From Candidatus Multivorans sp. (lineage in GTDB: Bacteria > Acidobacteriota > Thermoanaerobaculia > Multivoradales > Multivoraceae): a DNA stretch of 64,000 nucleotides. The notes under the pieces were generated by a model. That model searched no databases. It had not been told where the DNA came from and was given only the letters and a program-made list of their open reading frames with translations. The DNA lies in assembly GCA_965247095.1 (NCBI GenBank), contig OZ251997.1, positions 2,595,689-2,659,688 on the forward strand. Reading direction: 5' to 3'. Every line of letters begins with the position of its first letter. The stretch's first letter is position 1. A program made the translations under genes and the position numbers. Shown here one piece after another: positions 231-50,474 of the stretch.

Positions 231-1400
231 TCAGTTTGCCACCTTGATCTCGCGGATCTTCTTGAGCGGGACCGCGGTGATCTTCTCCGTCAGCCGGTAC
301 TCGAGGTCGCCCGGGTAGACCACCCACAGATGATCGAGACCGAGGTCCTTGCTGACCGTGTGCATCGACTTGGTCGTCCGGGGGGCATCCGCGCACTTGA
401 ACTCGAATCCCCAGCGCCTGCCGCCGCGGAGCAGCATGAGGTCCAGTTCCGCGCCCCGTTGGGTGCCCCAGAAGCATGCCTGGCGCGCACCGAACGCGAT
501 CAGGGTCTGTTCCAGGGCGAAGCCCTCCCAGCTTGGACCGTAGACGGGGTGGCGGACGAGGTCGTCCATCGATTCCAGCCCCAGCAGGTGGTGGAGAATG
601 CCGGAATCGCGGAGGTACACCTTGGGCGCCTTGACGACGCGTTTGCCGACGTTCTCGAACCATGGTTGGAGCACCCGGATCATGAACGTCCCGGCCAGCA
701 GGTCGCGGTAGTGGTTCACCGCGTTGACGCTGACACCCATCGAGCGGCTGAGCGCCGACGCGTTCCAGGTCTGCGAGTGGGCGTGCGCCAGCATGGTCCA
801 GAAGCGGCCTAGCGCCTCCGGCGACACCCTCGACCCGAGTCCCGGCACATCGCGCTCCAGGAACGTGCGCGCGAACGACTCCATCCACAACATGCAGGCG
901 GCATCCGACTCCGCCAGGTAGGCCAGTGGGAAGCCGCCGCGCATCCAGAGCCGGTCCTGGTTCTCCGCTCCCACCTCGTCGAGTGAGAAGCCGCTCACGT
1001 CGGCGAACGAGATGCGCCCAGCCAGGGTCTCGGAAACGCCGCGGATCAGGTCCCAGGAGGCGCTGCCCAGGAGCAGGAAGACGGCTTTCCGCGCAGGGTC
1101 GTCGCAGATCGGACGGAGAATCTCGAACAACTCGGGTACGCGCTGAACCTCGTCGATCACGATCAGCCCCTCGCCGCTTCGAAGGAGCCGCTCCGGAGTC
1201 GCGCGGAACGCCTCGCGAACCGCAGCCACCTCCAGGTCGTAGACCGTGGAGGGTCCCGTCCACGCCGCCACGATCTGTTGGGCGAGCGTCGTCTTGCCCA
1301 CCTGCCGAGCCCCCAGGAGAGCGGTGACCGGTGACTGGGAGAGTCTCCAGAGTGTGGCGTCGAGCAGGCGCTGTCGGGCGGTAGATTGTCGCATATTCAC
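231..1400 (-). CDS. AAA+ ATPase with C-terminal DUF4143 / PD-(D/E)xK-like nuclease module (COG1373-type)
   Basis: 389-aa ORF. Walker A is GARQVGKTT and Walker B is LIVIDEVQ. The C-terminus has AELDLML...GFEFK, a D...ExK pattern. Confidence 0.85.
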   Translation of the reverse strand: MNMRQSTARQRLLDATLWRLSQSPVTALLGARQVGKTTLAQQIVAAWTGPSTVYDLEVAAVREAFRATPERLLRSGEGLIVIDEVQRVPELFEILRPICDDPARKAVFLLLGSASWDLIRGVSETLAGRISFADVSGFSLDEVGAENQDRLWMRGGFPLAYLAESDAACMLWMESFARTFLERDVPGLGSRVSPEALGRFWTMLAHAHSQTWNASALSRSMGVSVNAVNHYRDLLAGTFMIRVLQPWFENVGKRVVKAPKVYLRDSGILHHLLGLESMDDLVRHPVYGPSWEGFALEQTLIAFGARQACFWGTQRGAELDLMLLRGGRRWGFEFKCADAPRTTKSMHTVSKDLGLDHLWVVYPGDLEYRLTEKITAVPLKKIREIKVAN

Positions 1401-1500
1401 CCTCAGAGGTGAGGTTTACGACAATAAACCGAGTTGGCGGGCTTGTCCAGCGGTGCTCAGGCGGGTGCTTCGGCCTCGTGGAACTCCTTCGCCTTGGGAC

Positions 1501-2952
1501 CTATGTGCGCTTGAGGACCTTCTCGATGATCTCTCTAGCGGCCCGGCGTGACTCGGCAGACTCCGCGATGGCTTGGAACACCTTCCGATACGTGGCAACG
1601 TCCTCGGTTCTGACGTTCGTCAGCCGCGGGCGGCCACGCTGTGCCCGGAAGTGGGTGAGCCTGCGCTCGATGCTCTCTGCTCGGTCGAGCAAGCCCGCAT
1701 CCCACCCGTCTGTTGTGCGAAGTACGTCTCGAATCCGACCTAGCCGAGTAAGGTCGTGTTCAATCAACCGGCGAGCTACTTCGGCAGTCAGGTACCCAGA
1801 TCGCGCAAGCTCGTACGTCTCCTCCGAGTCCGCAATTGCCGCTGCGAACCTGCGCTCGCGCGTTCTCGTTGCTGAGGTGTTTCTGCAGCGCTCCGCCAGT
1901 CGGCGGAAGATCGCTCCCAGGTGGTTCTCCAGATTTCTCGTGTGGGGTCCGGGCTCGAAGTAGTCTCGCCGGCCGTTCGGGACGATCCTGGGGTCCAGAA
2001 TGTGTATCTCCCCTACGGCCCACCTATTGAGGCGGTCCTCCTTGAACATATGGTCGAAGACGCCTTCGCCGCCGACTTGGATGTTCCCGCATCGCGCTCT
2101 GAGTCCTCTGATACCCGCGCTCTTGGGGATTGCTCCGAGGTAAGACGTGTGGGCAAGCCACCCCGCTGCCGCTCGCTCGCGGCTGTCGATCTTGGGCACG
2201 TCGAACACTTCGAGGGCGCTGAAGGCGTCGCTTCGGCCGGCAGAGAACTCAATGCCCTCGGCATGGGGCCTGGTAACGGCATCGTCGCCGTCGATGGAGA
2301 CGTTCATCGCGTACAGCGCATCTCCAACATACTCTTCGACCATCTCGCGGAAGGGAAAGGCGGTTGAGAGAGGCACTGGACAGACCTCCGCGACGTAGCT
2401 GTGAACCCTCTGCCGGTTCAGGACAGAGCCAGCCGCGTAGCGGGCGACGCCACGGACCTCTACTTCGAAGTACTGGTCGGGCTCTTCGTCGGCATCCAGT
2501 TGTTCCACAGTGACGAAGTCACCTATTCGCTGTTCCGTGTCGGCTAGGTCGTGGTTCCTCAGACGGAGGGCGTCCCAAGTGACGCGGACAGGAGGCTGGT
2601 CCGCGCTGGCCCTGGTGGTGAAAGCGACTGCCTCTGCGAAAGCCAGACCAGCCAGGCGACCGATTCCGCGAAATCCCCTATTGCTGGCGGCGCGCTTGGT
2701 GCTTTGGCCGACCGGAATCAACGAGTCGACGGCTTCCTGGAACGTCAGGCCGGGGCCGTAGTCCCGGATGCGGATCTGGGCCTGCCGAGGGTCGAGGTGA
2801 ATCTCGACTCGGCCGGATCCTGGACTTCCTGTAGTCGCGTCCGCTGCGTTCTGGAGATACTCGCGGTAGAGCGTCAGCGGATCGTCGTACATCCCCGACG
2901 TGACCAGCCGAAGAAGGCTGTGGCCGAGCGCTGGTTCGTTGGAGCTGCTCAT
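1501..2952 (-). CDS. GHKL-superfamily ATPase (HATPase_c_3 / Hsp90-MORC-like)
   Basis: 483-aa ORF. Bergerat-fold motifs are EYLQNAADA (N-box), DYGPGL (DxGxG) and GFRGIGRLAG (G-rich lid), encoded at about nt 2749-2862. GGGGAG Shine-Dalgarno lies just upstream of the ATG at 2952. Confidence 0.8.
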   Translation of the reverse strand: MSSSNEPALGHSLLRLVTSGMYDDPLTLYREYLQNAADATTGSPGSGRVEIHLDPRQAQIRIRDYGPGLTFQEAVDSLIPVGQSTKRAASNRGFRGIGRLAGLAFAEAVAFTTRASADQPPVRVTWDALRLRNHDLADTEQRIGDFVTVEQLDADEEPDQYFEVEVRGVARYAAGSVLNRQRVHSYVAEVCPVPLSTAFPFREMVEEYVGDALYAMNVSIDGDDAVTRPHAEGIEFSAGRSDAFSALEVFDVPKIDSRERAAAGWLAHTSYLGAIPKSAGIRGLRARCGNIQVGGEGVFDHMFKEDRLNRWAVGEIHILDPRIVPNGRRDYFEPGPHTRNLENHLGAIFRRLAERCRNTSATRTRERRFAAAIADSEETYELARSGYLTAEVARRLIEHDLTRLGRIRDVLRTTDGWDAGLLDRAESIERRLTHFRAQRGRPRLTNVRTEDVATYRKVFQAIAESAESRRAAREIIEKVLKRT

Positions 2953-3061
2953 GCTCTCCCCACTTGGAGACGGCCGTTCAGGTGATGGCTAGGCCGCCGT
3001 TGAAGGGCTAGCCGTTGTACCACAAGCAACGGGCCAGTAGCTGGCAGAGATCGCTTGGAGG

Positions 3062-4702
3062 CTAGCTCGCAGCCAGGACCTTCGTCGCCCGTGAGCGGGT
3101 GGCGGCGAGCGCCTCCTCGTGGCTGAACAGACCGGCGTCCTCCACGAACTCCTCTTCGCTGGGCATGGCCGGATCGGGATTGAGGGACGGGAACAACGGC
3201 AGTACCCGGTCCCGGACAGTCCCGGGAGCATCCTTCGTGTTGAGCGCATGGAAGCGGAGGAGCTGTCGAGTGGTGGCGTCGCGGGCTCGGTCGTTACTGG
3301 CGCGCTGACACAGGGCCCGTAGCTCGCCGTCCCCTCTAGCCTGAGCGAGGAAGGCGATGAACTCCCTTCTCTCCGACTCGGACAGTCGGGCTCGCAGCGT
3401 GTCGTACTCGTCCCGTGCTCCGGACTGCTCGTACTGCTCTCGGTGGAAGATGAGCGCGTGGGGCAACTCCAGTAGCTGCAAGAACTCCTCCTGGTCCCTT
3501 CCATAGGCGCGCTCGAAGAAGCTCGGGTTGCCGCTGACTACGCCACGGGTGGCCTGCAGCATGATCTGGAAGGACCGCAGGTAGTAGCGGTTCCAGCGCC
3601 TTCCCACGTGTGAGCGGTCCTTCAGCGTCACCGGTTGGTAGCGCATCGGGAACGACCAGATGCGAACGCCGAGCTCTTCGTTCAGGCCGATGTTCAGGCG
3701 CATCCGCTCGTACAGGTCCTCCGGGGAGTCCATGAAGTTGTACAGCATGTAGTTCGACAGCGACGTGATGCCGTTGTCAGCCGCCATCCTCACCGCGGTG
3801 GTGTAGATCTTTCGTAGTCCGATGTGGTCGAAGGCGATCCGGAGGGGGCTGATGCAGATAGTGGCCATCTCGCGCAGGTACATTGGGGACTTGACGAGAA
3901 TCCTTGCGTCCACACCCTGGTTGAAGTCGACGCGGCGCTTCACCGGCCGCTGATCGTTCCGCCTCAGCTTGGCTCCCTGCTCGAAACCGAGGTCGCGAAT
4001 CTCGGCGATGACCTCCTTGTACCGGGCGGACGCAGTGATGTTGTTGTCCATGAGCACGAGGTCCTTCTTGGGCCCGTGTCTCGCGTCTACCCCGTTGACG
4101 AGGGCGGCGAGGGGCGGCATTTCGCGCTGCGCACCCTCAAGTTTCGGGACGCCGCAGAAGGAGCACTTCCGTATGCAGCCCCTTGAGGCATAGCCGAAGT
4201 AGGCGTCCCGCACCGGATAGGTGTAGTCGAGCTGCTCCAGGATGGAGTAGTCCGGCACCATCTCCTCGATTGGAGGGCCGTCAAGGTCGTCCGCACCGAA
4301 CTCGAAGTCCTCCGCGCGAAGCTGAAGGGCTCTTGCCGGCGGGCCGTCCAGCAGTCCCGCGATGAAGCGGACCCCCGCCCACCGTGGCTCCTTGAGGAAC
4401 TCCTCGTGCATGAGCGAGGCAGCGATTCCGCCGACGAAGACCCGTTCGGGCTGGTTACCAGCCGATTGAATGGCGAAGTCGATGGTTTCGGCGGTGCGCT
4501 TCCACTCGAAGCTGAAGAGCGTCGTGACGTAGACGCGGTCCCACGGCTCCAGGAAGAGGCCCTTTTCCGACACACCTTTCGCGAGCGTCACCGCGTCGCC
4601 ACGCTGCCGGTGGTAAGCCGCGATCTTCATGAGCCCGAGAGGCGGGTACTTGTTGCGGTAGCCCGGCTCCAGGAGAAGCACGCGCTTCGTCGGCTCCGTC
4701 AT
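3062..4702 (-). CDS. Radical SAM enzyme with N-terminal B12-binding-like domain (COG1032-type); substrate unknown
   Basis: 546-aa ORF. The N-terminus reads LLLEPGYRNKYPPLGLMKIAAYHRQRGD. There is a single CxxxCxxC motif, CIRKCSFC (C176/C180/C183, nt 4154-4177). No C-terminal Cys-rich SPASM/twitch region is present. Confidence 0.85.
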   Translation of the reverse strand: MTEPTKRVLLLEPGYRNKYPPLGLMKIAAYHRQRGDAVTLAKGVSEKGLFLEPWDRVYVTTLFSFEWKRTAETIDFAIQSAGNQPERVFVGGIAASLMHEEFLKEPRWAGVRFIAGLLDGPPARALQLRAEDFEFGADDLDGPPIEEMVPDYSILEQLDYTYPVRDAYFGYASRGCIRKCSFCGVPKLEGAQREMPPLAALVNGVDARHGPKKDLVLMDNNITASARYKEVIAEIRDLGFEQGAKLRRNDQRPVKRRVDFNQGVDARILVKSPMYLREMATICISPLRIAFDHIGLRKIYTTAVRMAADNGITSLSNYMLYNFMDSPEDLYERMRLNIGLNEELGVRIWSFPMRYQPVTLKDRSHVGRRWNRYYLRSFQIMLQATRGVVSGNPSFFERAYGRDQEEFLQLLELPHALIFHREQYEQSGARDEYDTLRARLSESERREFIAFLAQARGDGELRALCQRASNDRARDATTRQLLRFHALNTKDAPGTVRDRVLPLFPSLNPDPAMPSEEEFVEDAGLFSHEEALAATRSRATKVLAAS

Positions 4703-4899
4703 TTGGCCAGCATCCGGGTCGCGACCTTGCGACTCTTCCCGAACTCGAAGTCCACCATCTTCCTCGTTACCGGGTCATTCTGCAGTCGTCGGACAGCGTG
4801 ACCCTGCTCCTGCCACGCGAGGCTGATGCCGAAACCGCTCGAGACGCGCGTTAGCATATCAATGGTGCGCCGCTGGCCTCTCTCGCTCAAGCGCGTCAT
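4699..4899 (-). CDS. Possible 66-aa hypothetical protein translationally coupled to the radical SAM gene
   Basis: Internal ATG at 4899 of track ORF 4699..5091 gives MTRLSERGQRRTIDMLTRVSSGFGISLAWQEQGHAVRRLQNDPVTRKMVDFEFGKSRKVATRMLAK. Its TGA overlaps the radical SAM ATG (ATGA). No convincing RBS and no recognisable family. Confidence 0.3.
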   Translation of the reverse strand: MTRLSERGQRRTIDMLTRVSSGFGISLAWQEQGHAVRRLQNDPVTRKMVDFEFGKSRKVATRMLAK

Positions 4900-5032
4900 G
4901 GGCCGGTCTGTCTCGCTCCTCGCCGCGCCAGCGAAGACCGGGCCGCGAGGCCAACTCCAAGATGGTCGAGCTTGTGAGTATTGTCGCATCCAGCTTCGAC
5001 CTCTGCCTCTCGCTTGTGGGACACCAGTCCTA

Positions 5033-7363
5033 CTAAACCGCCTGAGATTCAGCGATATCTTCCGGAAAGTACTTCTCGACCTTCTCAACATACTGGTTGA
5101 CGAAGGCGACCTGGTCCGGGGTCAGGACACCGCGCTCAGGGTGCGCCACGATGTTGCGAATATCGTTGAGTTTCTTGATCCATTGCGTGTTTGCCTTCAT
5201 GTTGTCCCTGTTACTCGCGTCCAGCGATATCACTTCTTTGAATAGCTGCCAATTGCGGTGACATATGTCGATATAGTTTATCAGAAAGAGTTGAGATTCT
5301 TCATTGCCCTCACGTCGCCGCTCTTCCCACCGGGCCATGCATTGCTGGCGGATCGTGAGCGGGATTCCTTCCGTCCACCACTCTGTGCCCTGCGCGCCAT
5401 AGTGTCCCTTCAACGCCACGATGACGTAGTCAAAGAGCCTACGCTGTATCTTTCGCACCTTGGCGCTCGCTTCTTCTGTACCCGCTTCATCGCGGGAATC
5501 CAAGTACTGCTGCAGCCCTGGCGGCCTGAAGCTGGGGATCGTCTGGCCAATATGCGCCTCCAAACCGTAGGCCTGCCGCCGCACGGCTGTCAGGGAAGAG
5601 CCAATGCGCCTAAAGGACTGGATCTCTTGCGGTGATGCGTTCTTCAAGTAGCCGACCAAGACCTGAAGATACGGCCGGATTTCCCCGAAGGTCTCTTCTG
5701 CATTGAAGAGACTGAGGTCCACGCCGTCCGTGCGACGGACATGGTCAGCAATATCTTCAATAACGTGAAACAGAGCCCGAATGCCGTTGTTGGTACACAG
5801 ATATCCACCGGCTCGGTCGCCGAGCTCCCAGTGGCTCGCGAGCCCCGCCGCGAACATGTTGAGGCACTCCGAGAGCACCCATAGGGCCTTCCTGAGGTTC
5901 GCGTTGTAGTCGTCGGTTCTGGCCGTAGACAGGGGGCCCGGCACAACCGCACCTCTAGCGAAGGCTCCCAACAGCTTGGCAACTCTGAGCCCGTCCCGCA
6001 CCGAAGTCTGTGTCAGGCAGCGATAGTGGCTCTTCCTCTTTCCGGTGACGACCAGGCGGTCATGGAGCGGCGAGGTGCTGTCGCGGTTGAGGCGGGAGGC
6101 GATACGCGAGAGTAGGGCCTGAAACGCTTCTTCACGGTCGGAAGAGCCCCAATGAAGGTCAGCGTAAAGCTCGACCAAGAGTCCTGTGCTCACCTTGACC
6201 TGCTTGCTGTTGATATCGATGAAGAGGTTCATCTCCTCCTCGGAAGGTAGGTTTTCATAGGCCAGCACGGACAGGACGGTTGAATCCTTGTTGAATCCCT
6301 CTTGTGCTCGCGCATAGGCGTAGCCATAGAGCCTATGCTGGCCGTCGATGATCCAGGCCGAGGCGTAGTTCGGTGGCAGATAGAGTGTGCCCCAGGCCTC
6401 GTCACCGTAGGTCTGCTTCGCATCGAAACGCATCCGAGTTTTCTTGCGGTTCTTCAAGTTGACAACGATATTTGTCGGAAACCTGCCGCCGCCATTGATG
6501 TATTGTGCGATCTTCTTCAGCCGGCGCGGCTGGAGCATGCGCTGGTATGTTTCCAAATTGTCGATGTCCCGGCTTGCCTTGTGGCCAACATAGGCGATCT
6601 TCAAGAGCTCGCCAGGGCTGATGAGGAAAGTGTAGAACGTCTCGCCGCCCATCCTGCCGCGGGTCGCTACGACTTGTCGGACTAGGCCGGGGATCTTCTG
6701 GCCGCCGAACATGTGCCCCAAGAACTGGTAGCGGGCCGCGCGTTTGAGGTGCTTCACGAGCTTCGCATAGTAGTCGAGTTCCCCGTCCGTGACGACCGCA
6801 ATCTCCGCCTTCTCGCACTTCGCAAGGTCCGCATCGCTCCATGAGACATTTCGTGTGGCGATGATAAATCTGACTTTGAGCCCCGACTGCCGGCCGTAGG
6901 CCTTGCGGACCGACTTGAGCAAGTTGCCCCGGATTGCCGTGATGTTCTCGATCAGCGGCGCCATGCGCTTCGTGCCCGGGGTGCCACGCTGCGTGCACTC
7001 GACGATGATGACGGTTTCGTCGTCCTTGGCGAACACATCGATCTGACGTCCTGGCGGGCCATCTTCGACGGCGATCGTGAACTTGCGGCCTTTGTTCATT
7101 TCATCGAAGCCCATCTGAGCTAGGATGCACCAAACTTCGTCCTCAAGCTGCTCGTCAGCAGGCTTCTCCTGGGCCATTCGCGTTGACTTGGCGTTCTTTC
7201 TGACCGTCCGCCAACCGTTAGCTGCTTCCAGCTTGACCTTTTGAGCGACAAGCTCCTTCGACGAACCCGAGACAGTCTTATAGATATCCGGCTTTTTCCG
7301 GCTCCTGAGCTCGGATGTGATCTCATCGCCGGATAAGAGGGGGTCTAGGTATTGGTCGGTCAT
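5033..7363 (-). CDS. DGQHR-domain (DndB/DpdB ParB-like) protein with C-terminal HEPN-like R-x4-H motif
   Basis: 776-aa ORF. It contains WIIDGQHRLYGY (nt 6332-6346), FPTNIVVNL, and LFIDINSKQVKV. The C-terminus reads KKLNDIRNIVAHPERG (RNIVAH at nt 5141-5158). AGGGAG RBS lies upstream of the ATG at 7363. GC is visibly lower than in flanking DNA. Confidence 0.85.
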   Translation of the reverse strand: MTDQYLDPLLSGDEITSELRSRKKPDIYKTVSGSSKELVAQKVKLEAANGWRTVRKNAKSTRMAQEKPADEQLEDEVWCILAQMGFDEMNKGRKFTIAVEDGPPGRQIDVFAKDDETVIIVECTQRGTPGTKRMAPLIENITAIRGNLLKSVRKAYGRQSGLKVRFIIATRNVSWSDADLAKCEKAEIAVVTDGELDYYAKLVKHLKRAARYQFLGHMFGGQKIPGLVRQVVATRGRMGGETFYTFLISPGELLKIAYVGHKASRDIDNLETYQRMLQPRRLKKIAQYINGGGRFPTNIVVNLKNRKKTRMRFDAKQTYGDEAWGTLYLPPNYASAWIIDGQHRLYGYAYARAQEGFNKDSTVLSVLAYENLPSEEEMNLFIDINSKQVKVSTGLLVELYADLHWGSSDREEAFQALLSRIASRLNRDSTSPLHDRLVVTGKRKSHYRCLTQTSVRDGLRVAKLLGAFARGAVVPGPLSTARTDDYNANLRKALWVLSECLNMFAAGLASHWELGDRAGGYLCTNNGIRALFHVIEDIADHVRRTDGVDLSLFNAEETFGEIRPYLQVLVGYLKNASPQEIQSFRRIGSSLTAVRRQAYGLEAHIGQTIPSFRPPGLQQYLDSRDEAGTEEASAKVRKIQRRLFDYVIVALKGHYGAQGTEWWTEGIPLTIRQQCMARWEERRREGNEESQLFLINYIDICHRNWQLFKEVISLDASNRDNMKANTQWIKKLNDIRNIVAHPERGVLTPDQVAFVNQYVEKVEKYFPEDIAESQAV

Positions 7364-7577
7364 GCCGCTGCTCCCTGGTGAGTCGACTATCTCGCATCAT
7401 GTCGCTGGAGGCGACATTCGTGGACCTGTGCCTCAGGGTGTTCCGCGGACGCAGTACCGGAAGGCGAAGGAAGGGCGTTGAAGCTGGACGTGAGTTTCGG
7501 GAGGCTAGCACTTCGGTTGCTGGGAGTCAGATCGGCCCGGAACCTGTCAACGACATTGACACAGCGGGGTTCTGGAT

Positions 7578-8576
7578 TTACTGAGTCGTCTCTGCAGTCT
7601 CGTTGTCGGGCTTGTTGATCCAGACGGCCTGGGGCAGTGGCGTATGCATCGGTTGGCCGCCGACGAATCGTTCGGGGGAGCTTTCCCAGGCGGCGCTCAG
7701 CGTGCGTTGGCGCTGCTCGATCACGGCTTGCGCCCGGCCGTAGTGGACGGTCTCGGGGGTCAGCATGGCGATGCCGGCATGGCGGTGTTCCGTGTTGTAC
7801 CAGGGGAAGAAGGACCTGCAGTAGTCGGTCGCGGCGTCCTGGTTGGGGAAGCGGCTGGGGAAGTCGGGGTGGTACTTGAGGGTCTTGAACTGTGCTTCGG
7901 AGTAGGGGTTGTCGTCGCTGACCCGCGGGCGGCCCAGGGACCGGTTCACGCCGAGGCGGGCGAGCAGTTGGGCGGTACCCTGGCTGGTCATGGGGGCGCC
8001 TCGATCGGAATGCAGGGTCAGGACATGGGGCTTGACGCCGTGCTTGAGGCAGGTCTCCTCGATGAGCCTTTGGGCGAGCGCGGAGTTCTCGCGGTCGGCG
8101 ACCATCCAGCCGACCGCGTAGCGGCTTAGGAGGTCAAGCAGGACGTAGAGGTAGTAGTAGGTCCAGGTCTGCGGTCCGAGCAGCCTGGTGATGTCCCACG
8201 ACCAGACCTGGTTGGGCGCGACAGCGACCAGCTCCGGCTTGGCGTACGACGGATGGACGCGCTGGTTGCGGCGGTCCCTCACGGGGTGGTTCGCTTCGAG
8301 GATGCGGTACATCGTGCGCTCCGAGCACAGGTAGCGGCCCTCGTCGAGCAGGGTGGCCACCACTTCTCCCGGCGAACGATCGACGAAACGCGGCGACGCA
8401 AGCGTGGCCTCGACCCGTTTCCGCTCGATCTGGCTCAGTGCCCGGGCAGGCGTGGGGCGGGGCTGCCGTCGCCCGGGAGCGGGCCTCGCACGACGATAGA
8501 AGGTCGATCGCGATACGCCCAGCGCCCGGCACGCCGGCGCGACGCCGACCTGCCGGGCCAGGGACCTTGCCGCCAT
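7578..8576 (-). CDS. IS3-family transposase OrfB (rve DDE integrase core)
   Basis: Contains NQVWSWDITRL, HSDRGAPMTS and DNPYSEAQFKTLKY. The ATG at 8576 overlaps the orfA stop (TGATG). The frame stays open upstream, consistent with an OrfAB fusion. Confidence 0.85.
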   Translation of the reverse strand: MAARSLARQVGVAPACRALGVSRSTFYRRARPAPGRRQPRPTPARALSQIERKRVEATLASPRFVDRSPGEVVATLLDEGRYLCSERTMYRILEANHPVRDRRNQRVHPSYAKPELVAVAPNQVWSWDITRLLGPQTWTYYYLYVLLDLLSRYAVGWMVADRENSALAQRLIEETCLKHGVKPHVLTLHSDRGAPMTSQGTAQLLARLGVNRSLGRPRVSDDNPYSEAQFKTLKYHPDFPSRFPNQDAATDYCRSFFPWYNTEHRHAGIAMLTPETVHYGRAQAVIEQRQRTLSAAWESSPERFVGGQPMHTPLPQAVWINKPDNETAETTQ

Positions 8577-9061
8577 CAGCAGTCCTTCCCGTCTTCGAGG
8601 CTGAATCCCAGCAGCCCTGCAACTTTTCCCTGGACGTCCAGGATCGTGTGCGCGGCGGCGACTTCCCTCTCGAGACGCTTGACCTTCGCTTCCAGCCGCT
8701 TCACCTTCGGCATCAGAGGGTTGGCCTCGTTCGGCTTGCGGCCCCGCTTCTTCGGCCTCAGACCGGAAAGCGCGCCCTCGCGCCGCGCCTTGCGCCAGTT
8801 GGCCAGATGGGAGCTGTACAGACCCTCTCGCCGCAGCAGCCGACCCACCTCGCCGCGGTGGGTGCATCGGTCCGCTTCCTCCAGAATCCGCAGCCGGTAC
8901 TCCGCCGTGAACTGCCGCCTGGTCGGTCTCGCCAGCACTTCCGGGTCGGGAACCGCCCCGGCGGGCGCCGCGCCGGCCGCGGGGGCCTCGTCGCTACGCT
9001 CCTCAACCCCCGCGGCCGGGAGCTCCGAGCCGCCGCCAAACCTCTGCTCTCGTCTTGACAT
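8576..9061 (-). CDS. IS3-family transposase OrfA (HTH)
   Basis: Sequence starts MSRREQRF and contains RRQFTAEYRLRILEEADRC and LLRREGLYSSHLANWRKAR plus a leucine-zipper-like tail. I preferred the internal ATG at 9061 of track ORF 8576..9091. Confidence 0.8.
   Translation of the reverse strand: MSRREQRFGGGSELPAAGVEERSDEAPAAGAAPAGAVPDPEVLARPTRRQFTAEYRLRILEEADRCTHRGEVGRLLRREGLYSSHLANWRKARREGALSGLRPKKRGRKPNEANPLMPKVKRLEAKVKRLEREVAAAHTILDVQGKVAGLLGFSLEDGKDC
8623..8630 (-). other. Candidate -1 programmed frameshift site (G GGA AAA G) for an OrfAB fusion
   Basis: Minus strand reads CAG GGA AAA GTT in the orfA frame. A -1 slip continues as GKSCRAAGIQ..., which is the orfB frame seen in track ORF 7578..8867. 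Confidence 0.35.
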
Positions 9062-9183
9062 TGATCCTCCTTGCCAACGTGTGCCCTCCACTATTCAACG
9101 GGATGGCCGCTGTGTCACGTACGTTGGCAGAGAGGGGCCGTAGGGGCGCTGACGCGTGGTTCGGAACGTGTTGGCTTCCGCCC

Positions 9184-50397: not shown

Positions 50398-50474
<77 letters not shown>

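Follow-up and report, generated by a model that had tools for sequence, protein, structure and literature searches.

We describe a candidate nucleic-acid modification and conflict locus found in a stretch of 64,000 nucleotides (the window) of Candidatus Multivorans sp., an acidobacterial genome (contig OZ251997.1 of assembly GCA_965247095.1, positions 2,595,689 to 2,659,688). The locus was found to consist of three intact open reading frames (ORFs) of 776, 546 and 483 aa, arranged head to tail and all on the minus strand, which encode a DGQHR-HEPN protein, a radical S-adenosylmethionine (radical SAM) enzyme and a GHKL ATPase, respectively. The features of the locus, in window coordinates and in the direction of transcription, were as follows.

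5033-7363, minus strand: DGQHR-HEPN gene, 776 aa, seen as ORF and translation; candidate three-domain sensor/effector
6764-7186, minus strand: putative PD-(D/E)xK (restriction-endonuclease-fold) domain at the N-terminus of the 776-aa protein, approximately residues 60-200
5714-6667, minus strand: DGQHR / ParB-superfamily nucleoside triphosphatase (NTPase)-like domain, residues 233-550 of the 776-aa protein, from TIGR03187 and alignments
5054-5446, minus strand: HEPN domain at the C-terminus of the 776-aa protein, approximately residues 640-770, with R736-x4-H741
4703-5032, minus strand: non-conserved spacer of 330 nt containing a 66-aa ORF; marks the apparent junction at which the effector allele recombined with the radical SAM-GHKL core
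4699-4899, minus strand: 66-aa ORF, with an ATGA overlap with the start of the radical SAM gene
3062-4702, minus strand: radical SAM enzyme, 546 aa, with a Rossmann-like (B12-binding-type) N-domain, a barrel and a helical C-terminus
1501-2952, minus strand: GHKL ATPase, Hsp90/MORC-like, 483 aa

The intergenic gap between the 776-aa gene and the small ORF measured 133 nt and that between the radical SAM and GHKL genes 109 nt, in agreement with the spacing of about 110-130 nt given in a preliminary description of this DNA made from the sequence alone. The motifs named in that description, WIIDGQHRLYGY, FPTNIVVNL and LFIDINSKQVKV in the 776-aa protein, CIRKCSFC (C176, C180 and C183) in the radical SAM enzyme, and EYLQNAADA, DYGPGL and GFRGIGRLAG in the GHKL protein, were all present at the coordinates that it gave. 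Its remark that the GC content of the locus lies below that of the flanks was also borne out (0.57-0.64 compared to 0.66-0.70), with values of 0.57-0.59 for the 776-aa gene and 0.62-0.64 for the radical SAM and GHKL genes. Promoter, terminator and Rfam scans of the three-gene locus gave nothing above background.

The 776-aa protein matched the DGQHR family TIGR03187 over residues 233-538 (E 3e-55), Pfam DndB with 47.8 bits (cut-off 29.1) and PADLOC DpdB at E 6e-18, the last being a domain-level match to the common DGQHR domain. The C-terminal domain has the all-alpha fold and the Rx4-6H motif of the HEPN superfamily, and its matches included AbiF (7.7), 2hsb (7.1) and Swt1 (6.4). The putative restriction-endonuclease-fold domain at the N-terminus was absent from the preliminary description. 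In an alignment of close homologues, D109, K113, E122, D340-G-Q-H-R344, R736 and H741 did not vary; at the third motif position of the PD-(D/E)xK domain the window protein has T124, and a more distant clade linked to methyltransferases has K (see below). The family is approximately 70% identical across its full length, the AlphaFold2 (AF2) model of the window protein had a pLDDT (predicted local distance difference test) of 72.8, and a sequence search of PDB chains with the family profile returned no match. A 'ParB (Saro_3948)'-HEPN fusion is given in Table 1 of Anantharaman et al. 2013 (PMC3710099). The DGQHR-HEPN family of plasmid pNL1 corresponds to this fusion, and no part of the system is, as far as found in the literature, mentioned earlier except in this entry.

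The 546-aa enzyme belongs to the radical SAM superfamily, with a CxxxCxxC cluster motif (C176-x3-C180-x2-C183) set in a partial TIM barrel. The sequence holds this single cluster motif and one isolated invariant cysteine, and no auxiliary-cluster cysteines of the methylthiotransferase type. Pfam Radical_SAM and B12-binding both matched the window enzyme weakly; B12-binding rose to 1e-4 in distant members of the family without passing the cut-off, and a sequence search of PDB chains gave cluster-motif matches only. The nearest folds to its model (pLDDT 69.8) were TsrM, MgmA, TokK and CysS, which are B12-type radical SAM methylases with macromolecular or complex substrates. The earlier suggestion of a B12-binding-like N-domain thus stands at the level of the fold, in a model of moderate quality, and not at the level of sequence (E 0.09), and the claim that the enzyme does not resemble QueE or viperin agrees with these nearest folds. 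Identity to the class B methylases TsrM, TokK, CysS and MgmA was 9-18%; these enzymes differ in acting on small molecules or peptides, none of them being known to act on DNA or to depend on a GHKL partner.

The radical SAM family is large, with more than 6800 close homologues, many of them approximately 70% identical, and 372 clusters at E 1e-30 or better in a library of 50%-identity representatives. One member of 791 aa (P0339) carries a short-type DGQHR domain (residues 48-277) fused to the radical SAM region (residues 289-718), and some variants of approximately 800 aa have C-terminal extensions of approximately 370 aa that match neither GHKL nor Pfam. Standalone proteins of approximately 300 aa were also seen in phages, at 4974-5891 of the Bacteroides phage LoVEphage sequence (L172) and at 4971-5846 of that of Clostridium phage phiCT453B (L173). 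These phage homologues form phrog_9298 (E 1e-40 to the window enzyme) and are encoded in early/replication regions, in LoVEphage close to fragments of Dam methyltransferase and a PAPS-reductase-like gene.

The GHKL protein has the Bergerat fold, with E31/N35/D38, D64-G66-G68 and G93..G96-I-G98 invariant in 16 family members, and the family profile matched the HtpG/Hsp90 N-domain at E 1e-12. Further invariants were R92GFRGIGRLxG102 and, in the C-terminal part, E315xH317...N326xRRD330. The C-terminus is conserved and rich in basic residues, and its segment GEIHILDPRIV matches the MORC basic-finger pattern GhXhhpXXRhl, with R322 not invariant. Prokaryotic MORC/paraMORC and MutL-like GHKL ATPases of restriction-modification loci have been described by Iyer et al. 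2008 (PMC2292703). The protein is like the MORC/paraMORC group in its GHKL Bergerat fold with all ATP-binding motifs and in its restriction-modification and defence neighbourhoods with SF2 helicases and nucleases, but PMC2292703 gives no radical SAM partners.

Linkage of the three genes was surveyed by scanning one genome per species for DGQHR-HEPN, which left 80 loci; linkage was counted on the 60 loci with at least 39% identity. Both the radical SAM and the GHKL gene were found within 10 kb of the DGQHR-HEPN gene in 49 of these 60 loci, in 19 of them contiguous, on the same strand and in the order of the window. Only one of the two partners was present in six loci, mostly on short or truncated contigs, and neither in four, three of which are on short or truncated contigs. 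When gene order was counted in 143 loci containing the radical SAM gene, a GHKL gene was found immediately 3' of it on the same strand in 123 of 126 loci, and a ParB-superfamily gene immediately 5' in 85 of 120, comprising 46 short DGQHR, 23 DGQHR-HEPN and 16 ParB-like proteins. The question raised in the preliminary description, whether DGQHR, radical SAM and GHKL genes co-occur across genomes, is therefore answered in the affirmative.

These counts show that the radical SAM-GHKL pair rather than the DGQHR protein forms the constant core of a modular family. Clustering of ORFs from 88 loci gave as recurrent families DGQHR-HEPN, radical SAM, GHKL, short DGQHR, D12 methyltransferase, PIN, ParB-like, a small protein and SNF2. 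The core was alternatively partnered by a short DGQHR protein, by an SNF2 helicase together with two ParB-like proteins, or by a PIN protein and a second GHKL. Among 80 metagenome loci centred on the radical SAM gene, the SNF2/ParB module was the commonest partner (approximately half), and DGQHR-HEPN was found in approximately seven; the order of that module is ParB-like, a protein of approximately 150 aa, SNF2 helicase and ParB-like, followed by radical SAM and GHKL. A module of PIN_8-like and HATPase_c_3 (second GHKL) genes was frequent beside the core in sphingomonads and rhizobia, at 4081-7634 of L008 (pNL1), at 12303-15786 of L009, and in L013, L030 and L046-L066, and may be an independent effector pair. 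In L007, a relative of the window, the genes ahead of radical SAM (930-5416) encode an unknown protein of 359 aa, a 565-aa protein that matches HerA/mad8 weakly and an additional GHKL, and in Marinitoga camini virus 1 (MCV1; L091, 5998-9824) a 360-aa radical SAM homologue adjoins genes with the annotations HerA and NurA-like exonuclease. These two loci may represent another, HerA/NurA-like alternative module.

The loci were hosted by Acidobacteriota, Thermodesulfobacteriota, Latescibacterota, Binatia, Spirochaetia, Gemmatimonadota, Cloacimonadota, Pseudomonadota and one Methanoperedens archaeon; in total, the three-gene cluster was recorded from no fewer than ten bacterial phyla. In the archaeal case, a 2.7-kb contig of a Candidatus Methanoperedens metagenome-assembled genome (MAG; L067), a DGQHR-HEPN relative (52% identity) adjoins a radical SAM relative (40%), and the system has therefore crossed the domain boundary. 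Conjugative plasmids of alphaproteobacteria also carry the system, for example pNL1 of Novosphingobium aromaticivorans, whose genes encode PIN-like, GHKL, DGQHR, radical SAM and GHKL proteins, the radical SAM and GHKL genes overlapping by 4 nt, with a 769-aa DGQHR-HEPN protein on the opposite strand. The GC content of the system genes was below that of their surroundings in 48 of 52 loci. The co-occurrence, the spread and the absence of membership in any known system support the preliminary view of an undescribed conflict/modification operon.

The relation between DGQHR-HEPN and its partner was revealed by a distant clade of the family (approximately 30-37% identity), which keeps all catalytic motifs, including the canonical D...ECK, and adjoins an N6-adenine DNA methyltransferase instead of radical SAM-GHKL. 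Matches verified with Pfam placed a D12/Dam-class enzyme in 12 loci of this clade, a divergent D12 in L088, an HsdM-type enzyme in L086 and an MT-A70 enzyme in L073; a D12 methyltransferase was also the neighbour in L060, which belongs to the radical SAM-linked clade. The loci with a methyltransferase pair were L060, L071, L073, L075-L079, L081, L082 and L085-L090. In a neighbour-joining tree of DGQHR-HEPN the radical SAM-linked and methyltransferase-linked clades were separate, with nested exceptions in both directions, L060 with its methyltransferase in the former and L074 with radical SAM-GHKL in the latter, indicating that the partner has been exchanged repeatedly. Since the partner is interchangeable, being either one of three unrelated methyltransferase families or radical SAM-GHKL, DGQHR-HEPN is most simply the restriction or effector half of the system, and on that reading radical SAM-GHKL is a non-orthologous replacement of the methylase. 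The asymmetry is that of restriction-modification: radical SAM-GHKL often occurs without DGQHR-HEPN, and DGQHR-HEPN of the window clade almost never without radical SAM-GHKL. In L010 the effector gene is interrupted by a transposase and the radical SAM-GHKL genes are intact. The two-gene methyltransferase units of the distant clade look like an uncharacterised restriction-modification type in their own right.

Comparison with close relatives revealed the history of the window locus. The window was syntenic on both sides with L005, a TARA metagenome contig. Between the conserved flanks, L005 contains a module of helix-turn-helix, ParB, SNF2 and ParB genes, where the window has DGQHR-HEPN and an insertion sequence instead; the two are homologous again from 4669, eleven codons inside the radical SAM gene. 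A third relative, L007, has yet another upstream module, so that upstream modules have been exchanged among close relatives at the radical SAM start. Two MAGs of 'Candidatus Multivorans' (Acidobacteriota; L020 and L059) and contig L010 were 91-94% identical to the window in nucleotide sequence over radical SAM and GHKL, an identity that extends over the AAA_14 gene in L020 and L059, compared to 70-72% over DGQHR-HEPN, with a sharp boundary at 4687-4691. The effector allele closest to that of the window came from a Thermodesulfobacteriota MAG. By this comparison of sequences, the window effector appears as a horizontally replaced allele, joined by recombination at the radical SAM start to a vertically inherited radical SAM-GHKL core.

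The preliminary description had counted three or four genes, the fourth being the 66-aa ORF. Its ATGA overlap with the radical SAM gene was confirmed, but the ORF did not hold up as a gene of the system. It has a gene call in the source genome and forms a singleton cluster, with no homologue in any of approximately 170 compared loci or in PHROGs. The 330-nt spacer in which it lies showed no similarity to any gene in the compared loci and no Rfam match, and the corresponding spacer in the close relatives whose radical SAM-GHKL DNA is 91-94% identical is approximately 120-140 nt. The 66-aa ORF is accordingly an orphan and, being probably not a component of the system, was rejected as a fourth gene. 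The idea that the window holds a truncated ParB-SNF2-ParB-radical SAM-GHKL system with the small ORF as a relic of a ParB-like gene was also rejected, because the order DGQHR-HEPN, radical SAM, GHKL is contiguous in 19 genomes and the spacer matches no gene.

Outside the three genes, the following features were found in the window.

231-1400, minus strand: AAA_14/DUF4143 ATPase, directly 3' of the GHKL gene; PADLOC candidate PDC-S01
7578-8867, minus strand: rve-family transposase gene, upstream of the DGQHR-HEPN gene
7544-9130: insertion sequence of approximately 1.6 kb, with 24-nt imperfect inverted repeats at 7544-7567 and 9107-9130
further upstream of the transposase: TraB/GumN-like gene, sulfatase and penicillin-binding protein

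The insertion sequence is placed between the TraB/GumN-like gene and the DGQHR-HEPN gene and forms the edge of the region that differs from L005. Unrelated genomes lack the AAA_14/DUF4143 ATPase at this place, which it keeps in L005, L007, L020 and L059, and the ATPase is thus probably a separate, adjoining defence candidate; its L005 orthologue matched PDC-S01 at E 1e-79. The sole tRNA gene in the window, tRNA-Met (CAT) at 50398-50474 on the minus strand, is distant and bears no evident relation to the locus. Neighbours of system loci across genomes included toxin-antitoxin genes, a Dam methylase, a ubiquitin-like conjugation system, AAA_15/21 and PDC-S01. In a Holophagales MAG (L003, 13456-17917; L004, 7870-12331) genes for an AAA_15/AAA_21 protein (792 aa), ThiF, DUF6791 and Multi_ubiq lie directly downstream of the radical SAM-GHKL system, and this ThiF/Multi_ubiq neighbourhood, which represents ubiquitin-like conjugation of the defence type, indicates a defence island.

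Membership in the Dnd, Dpd, Ssp, viperin and Ophion systems was rejected, as their defining features were absent. The 776-aa protein scored 12.7 bits against the DndB equivalog TIGR03233 (cut-off 328) and 61.7 bits against the DpdB equivalog NF041060 (cut-off 300), and is thus neither DndB nor DpdB. None of DndA, C, D, E, F, G and H was recurrent in 168 neighbourhoods or present in the window flanks, and no TGT-like DpdA was found in the window locus or recurrently in related loci. With scores this far below the cut-offs and no recurrent partners, the initial judgement that the locus is neither Dnd nor Dpd is supported. There was no PADLOC or Pfam match for Ssp/GmrSD (DUF262 with DUF1524/HNH, SspABCD), neither a radical SAM enzyme like that of prokaryotic viperin nor the gene set of Ophion (radical SAM, PHP and phosphoribosyltransferase) was found, and methyltransferases were absent from the window locus, occurring only beside the distant DGQHR-HEPN clade and in L060. 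Pfam, NCBIfam and PADLOC hold no specific model for DGQHR-HEPN, for the radical SAM or for the GHKL family. The lack of PADLOC models for the last two agrees with the statement that no system of such composition had been described, and the literature gave no description of this radical SAM enzyme with GHKL, with or without DGQHR, although it may have been mentioned earlier.

In its logic, the locus resembles Dpd, Ssp and classical restriction-modification. Dpd (DpdA/B/C for modification with 7-deazaguanine, DpdD-K for restriction) likewise places a DGQHR/ParB NTPase beside a DNA-modifying enzyme that needs it, has a large, modular, island-borne organisation, and shares the SNF2 helicase of the sister architectures, whose best PADLOC matches were ZorD and DpdE; here, in contrast, there is no preQ0 pathway gene, and radical SAM with its GHKL partner stands in the position of DpdA. 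In Ssp systems the sensor-nuclease works with a DNA-modification module, whose mark it senses. The likeness to SspABCD-SspE and GmrSD/BrxU is a DGQHR-type ParB NTPase sensor and a nuclease effector in one polypeptide, as in SspE, a DGQHR NTPase-nuclease fusion discussed in PMC10164549; the effector domains here differ in being of the PD-(D/E)xK fold and HEPN rather than DUF1524/HNH, and SspABCD genes are absent. Dnd (DndABCDE, DndFGH), a modification-based system often decoupled into modules (PMC10853773), shares the DndB-like DGQHR domain, and viperins and Ophion share a radical SAM enzyme within a defence-type locus. With classical restriction-modification the locus has in common that the same three-domain protein stands beside a D12, HsdM-type or MT-A70 methyltransferase in the distant clade, whereas the window clade has radical SAM and GHKL in place of the methyltransferase, and ECT instead of ECK.

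The locus looks like the minimal three-gene form of a widespread, modular and horizontally mobile system. The reading that we favour, tentatively and at somewhat less than an even chance, is that it works in the manner of restriction-modification, Dpd and Ssp, with radical SAM-GHKL marking the DNA of its own cell and DGQHR-HEPN serving as the sensor and effector. Radical SAM and its obligate GHKL partner would form the modification module, in which GHKL would act as an ATP-driven DNA clamp or loader and the radical SAM enzyme, by 5'-deoxyadenosyl radical chemistry and possibly by cobalamin-dependent methyl transfer, would mark the cell's own DNA covalently. The DGQHR NTPase domain, supplied here by the 776-aa protein, could help the enzyme to engage DNA, as DpdB does for DpdA. 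Such a helper role is suggested by the precedent of DpdB, a DGQHR-type ATPase needed for the insertion of preQ0 into DNA by DpdA (PMC10164549), together with the ParB-superfamily genes upstream of radical SAM and the fusion in P0339. The DGQHR domain of the 776-aa protein would also read the DNA or its modification state and then license both effector domains, the restriction-fold nuclease against DNA and HEPN against RNA, so that unmarked invading DNA would be destroyed or an abortive shutdown would follow. Inferred in this reading are DNA as the substrate, the kind of mark, whether sensing responds to unmarked or marked DNA, and any anti-phage phenotype. A more specific version is put forward with greater reserve, though as a substantial chance: radical SAM-GHKL might install a radical-chemistry mark on double-stranded DNA that is the self-label of the immune system and is read by DGQHR-HEPN, SNF2/ParB or PIN/GHKL effectors. 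With equal reserve, the mark might be, for example, a cobalamin-dependent C-methylation or a C-H functionalisation beyond the reach of S_N2 methyltransferases.

Several observations weigh against this restriction-modification-like reading. DNA as the substrate is suggested by context, and the B12 assignment is a fold similarity of a model of moderate quality (both AF2 models had a pLDDT of approximately 70), the Pfam B12-binding match of the window enzyme not being significant. The radical SAM enzyme is unusually conserved, with approximately 70% identity across phyla, and has no obvious variable target-recognition domain, a combination atypical of sequence-specific modification enzymes. The nuclease motif of the radical SAM-linked clade is ECT and not ECK, and the DNase of this clade may be altered or inactive, as judged from the motif. 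HEPN domains, being RNases, suit abortive infection more than classical restriction. No nuclease is recognisable in the SNF2/ParB module, which is the commonest partner of the core, and L043, with an intact DGQHR-HEPN gene and no radical SAM-GHKL within 10 kb, is the sole clear orphan.

The high conservation of the radical SAM enzyme would suit a fixed small-molecule substrate, and an alternative that we regard as unlikely is that the GHKL-regulated enzyme turns a nucleotide into a chain-terminating antiviral analogue or a signal upon infection; the signal would bind the DGQHR domain and activate the nuclease and HEPN domains, leading to abortive infection with no self-marking of DNA. Viperin makes ddhCTP, and oxetanocin is formed from dATP-type substrates by OxsB, which is B12-dependent. 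Among radical SAM defence enzymes, the viperins and Ophion (bioRxiv 10.1101/2025.09.30.679545) act on nucleotides, and ParB/DGQHR domains bind and hydrolyse NTPs (PMC10164549). However, this model leaves unexplained the methyltransferases of three families at the partner position, as well as the near-obligate GHKL clamp-type ATPase and the DNA-handling SNF2/ParB modules, and there was no match to pVip or other PADLOC models. Modification of tRNA, rRNA or protein, as by the structural neighbours MiaB, RimO and MgmA, with the HEPN RNase telling modified from unmodified RNA in a translational-shutdown or addiction module, is improbable: the enzyme has no auxiliary-cluster cysteines of the methylthiotransferase type, all recurrent partners are associated with DNA (ParB/DGQHR, SNF2, restriction-fold nuclease and GHKL), and the partners displaced are DNA N6-adenine methyltransferases.

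The system might also serve a purpose other than immunity, such as establishment of a plasmid or integrative and conjugative element, anti-restriction self-modification, partition, chromatin organisation or radical DNA repair similar to that of spore-photoproduct lyase, with the DGQHR-HEPN gene as an addiction toxin. Its occurrence on conjugative plasmids beside DUF736, DUF1173 and an SRAP peptidase speaks for such a role, as do the short standalone phage homologues of phrog_9298 (E 1e-40) in replication/modification modules, which are compatible with a mobile-element role or with DNA modification in general; partition and remodelling are also known functions of ParB-like proteins and SNF2 helicases. 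We nevertheless give little credence to this possibility, as many loci are chromosomal and lie amid defence-type genes with the cassette swapping typical of immune loci, and a dual-nuclease effector paired with methyltransferases in relatives is the pattern of restriction-modification.

If the restriction-modification-like reading is true, a radical SAM enzyme would replace the methyltransferase in this kind of immunity and would produce a new kind of DNA modification. On the more specific version, this would be the first epigenetic or immune mark in cellular DNA made by a radical SAM enzyme and would define a new modification-restriction class. GHKL/MORC-type ATPases would gain a role as loaders of a DNA-modifying enzyme, and the ParB/DGQHR NTPases would provide another case of modification cofactors and sensors. 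The repeated swap between methyltransferase and radical SAM-GHKL offers a natural comparative control. Since this large family is unnamed in Pfam, NCBIfam and PADLOC, many genomes carry the system unannotated.

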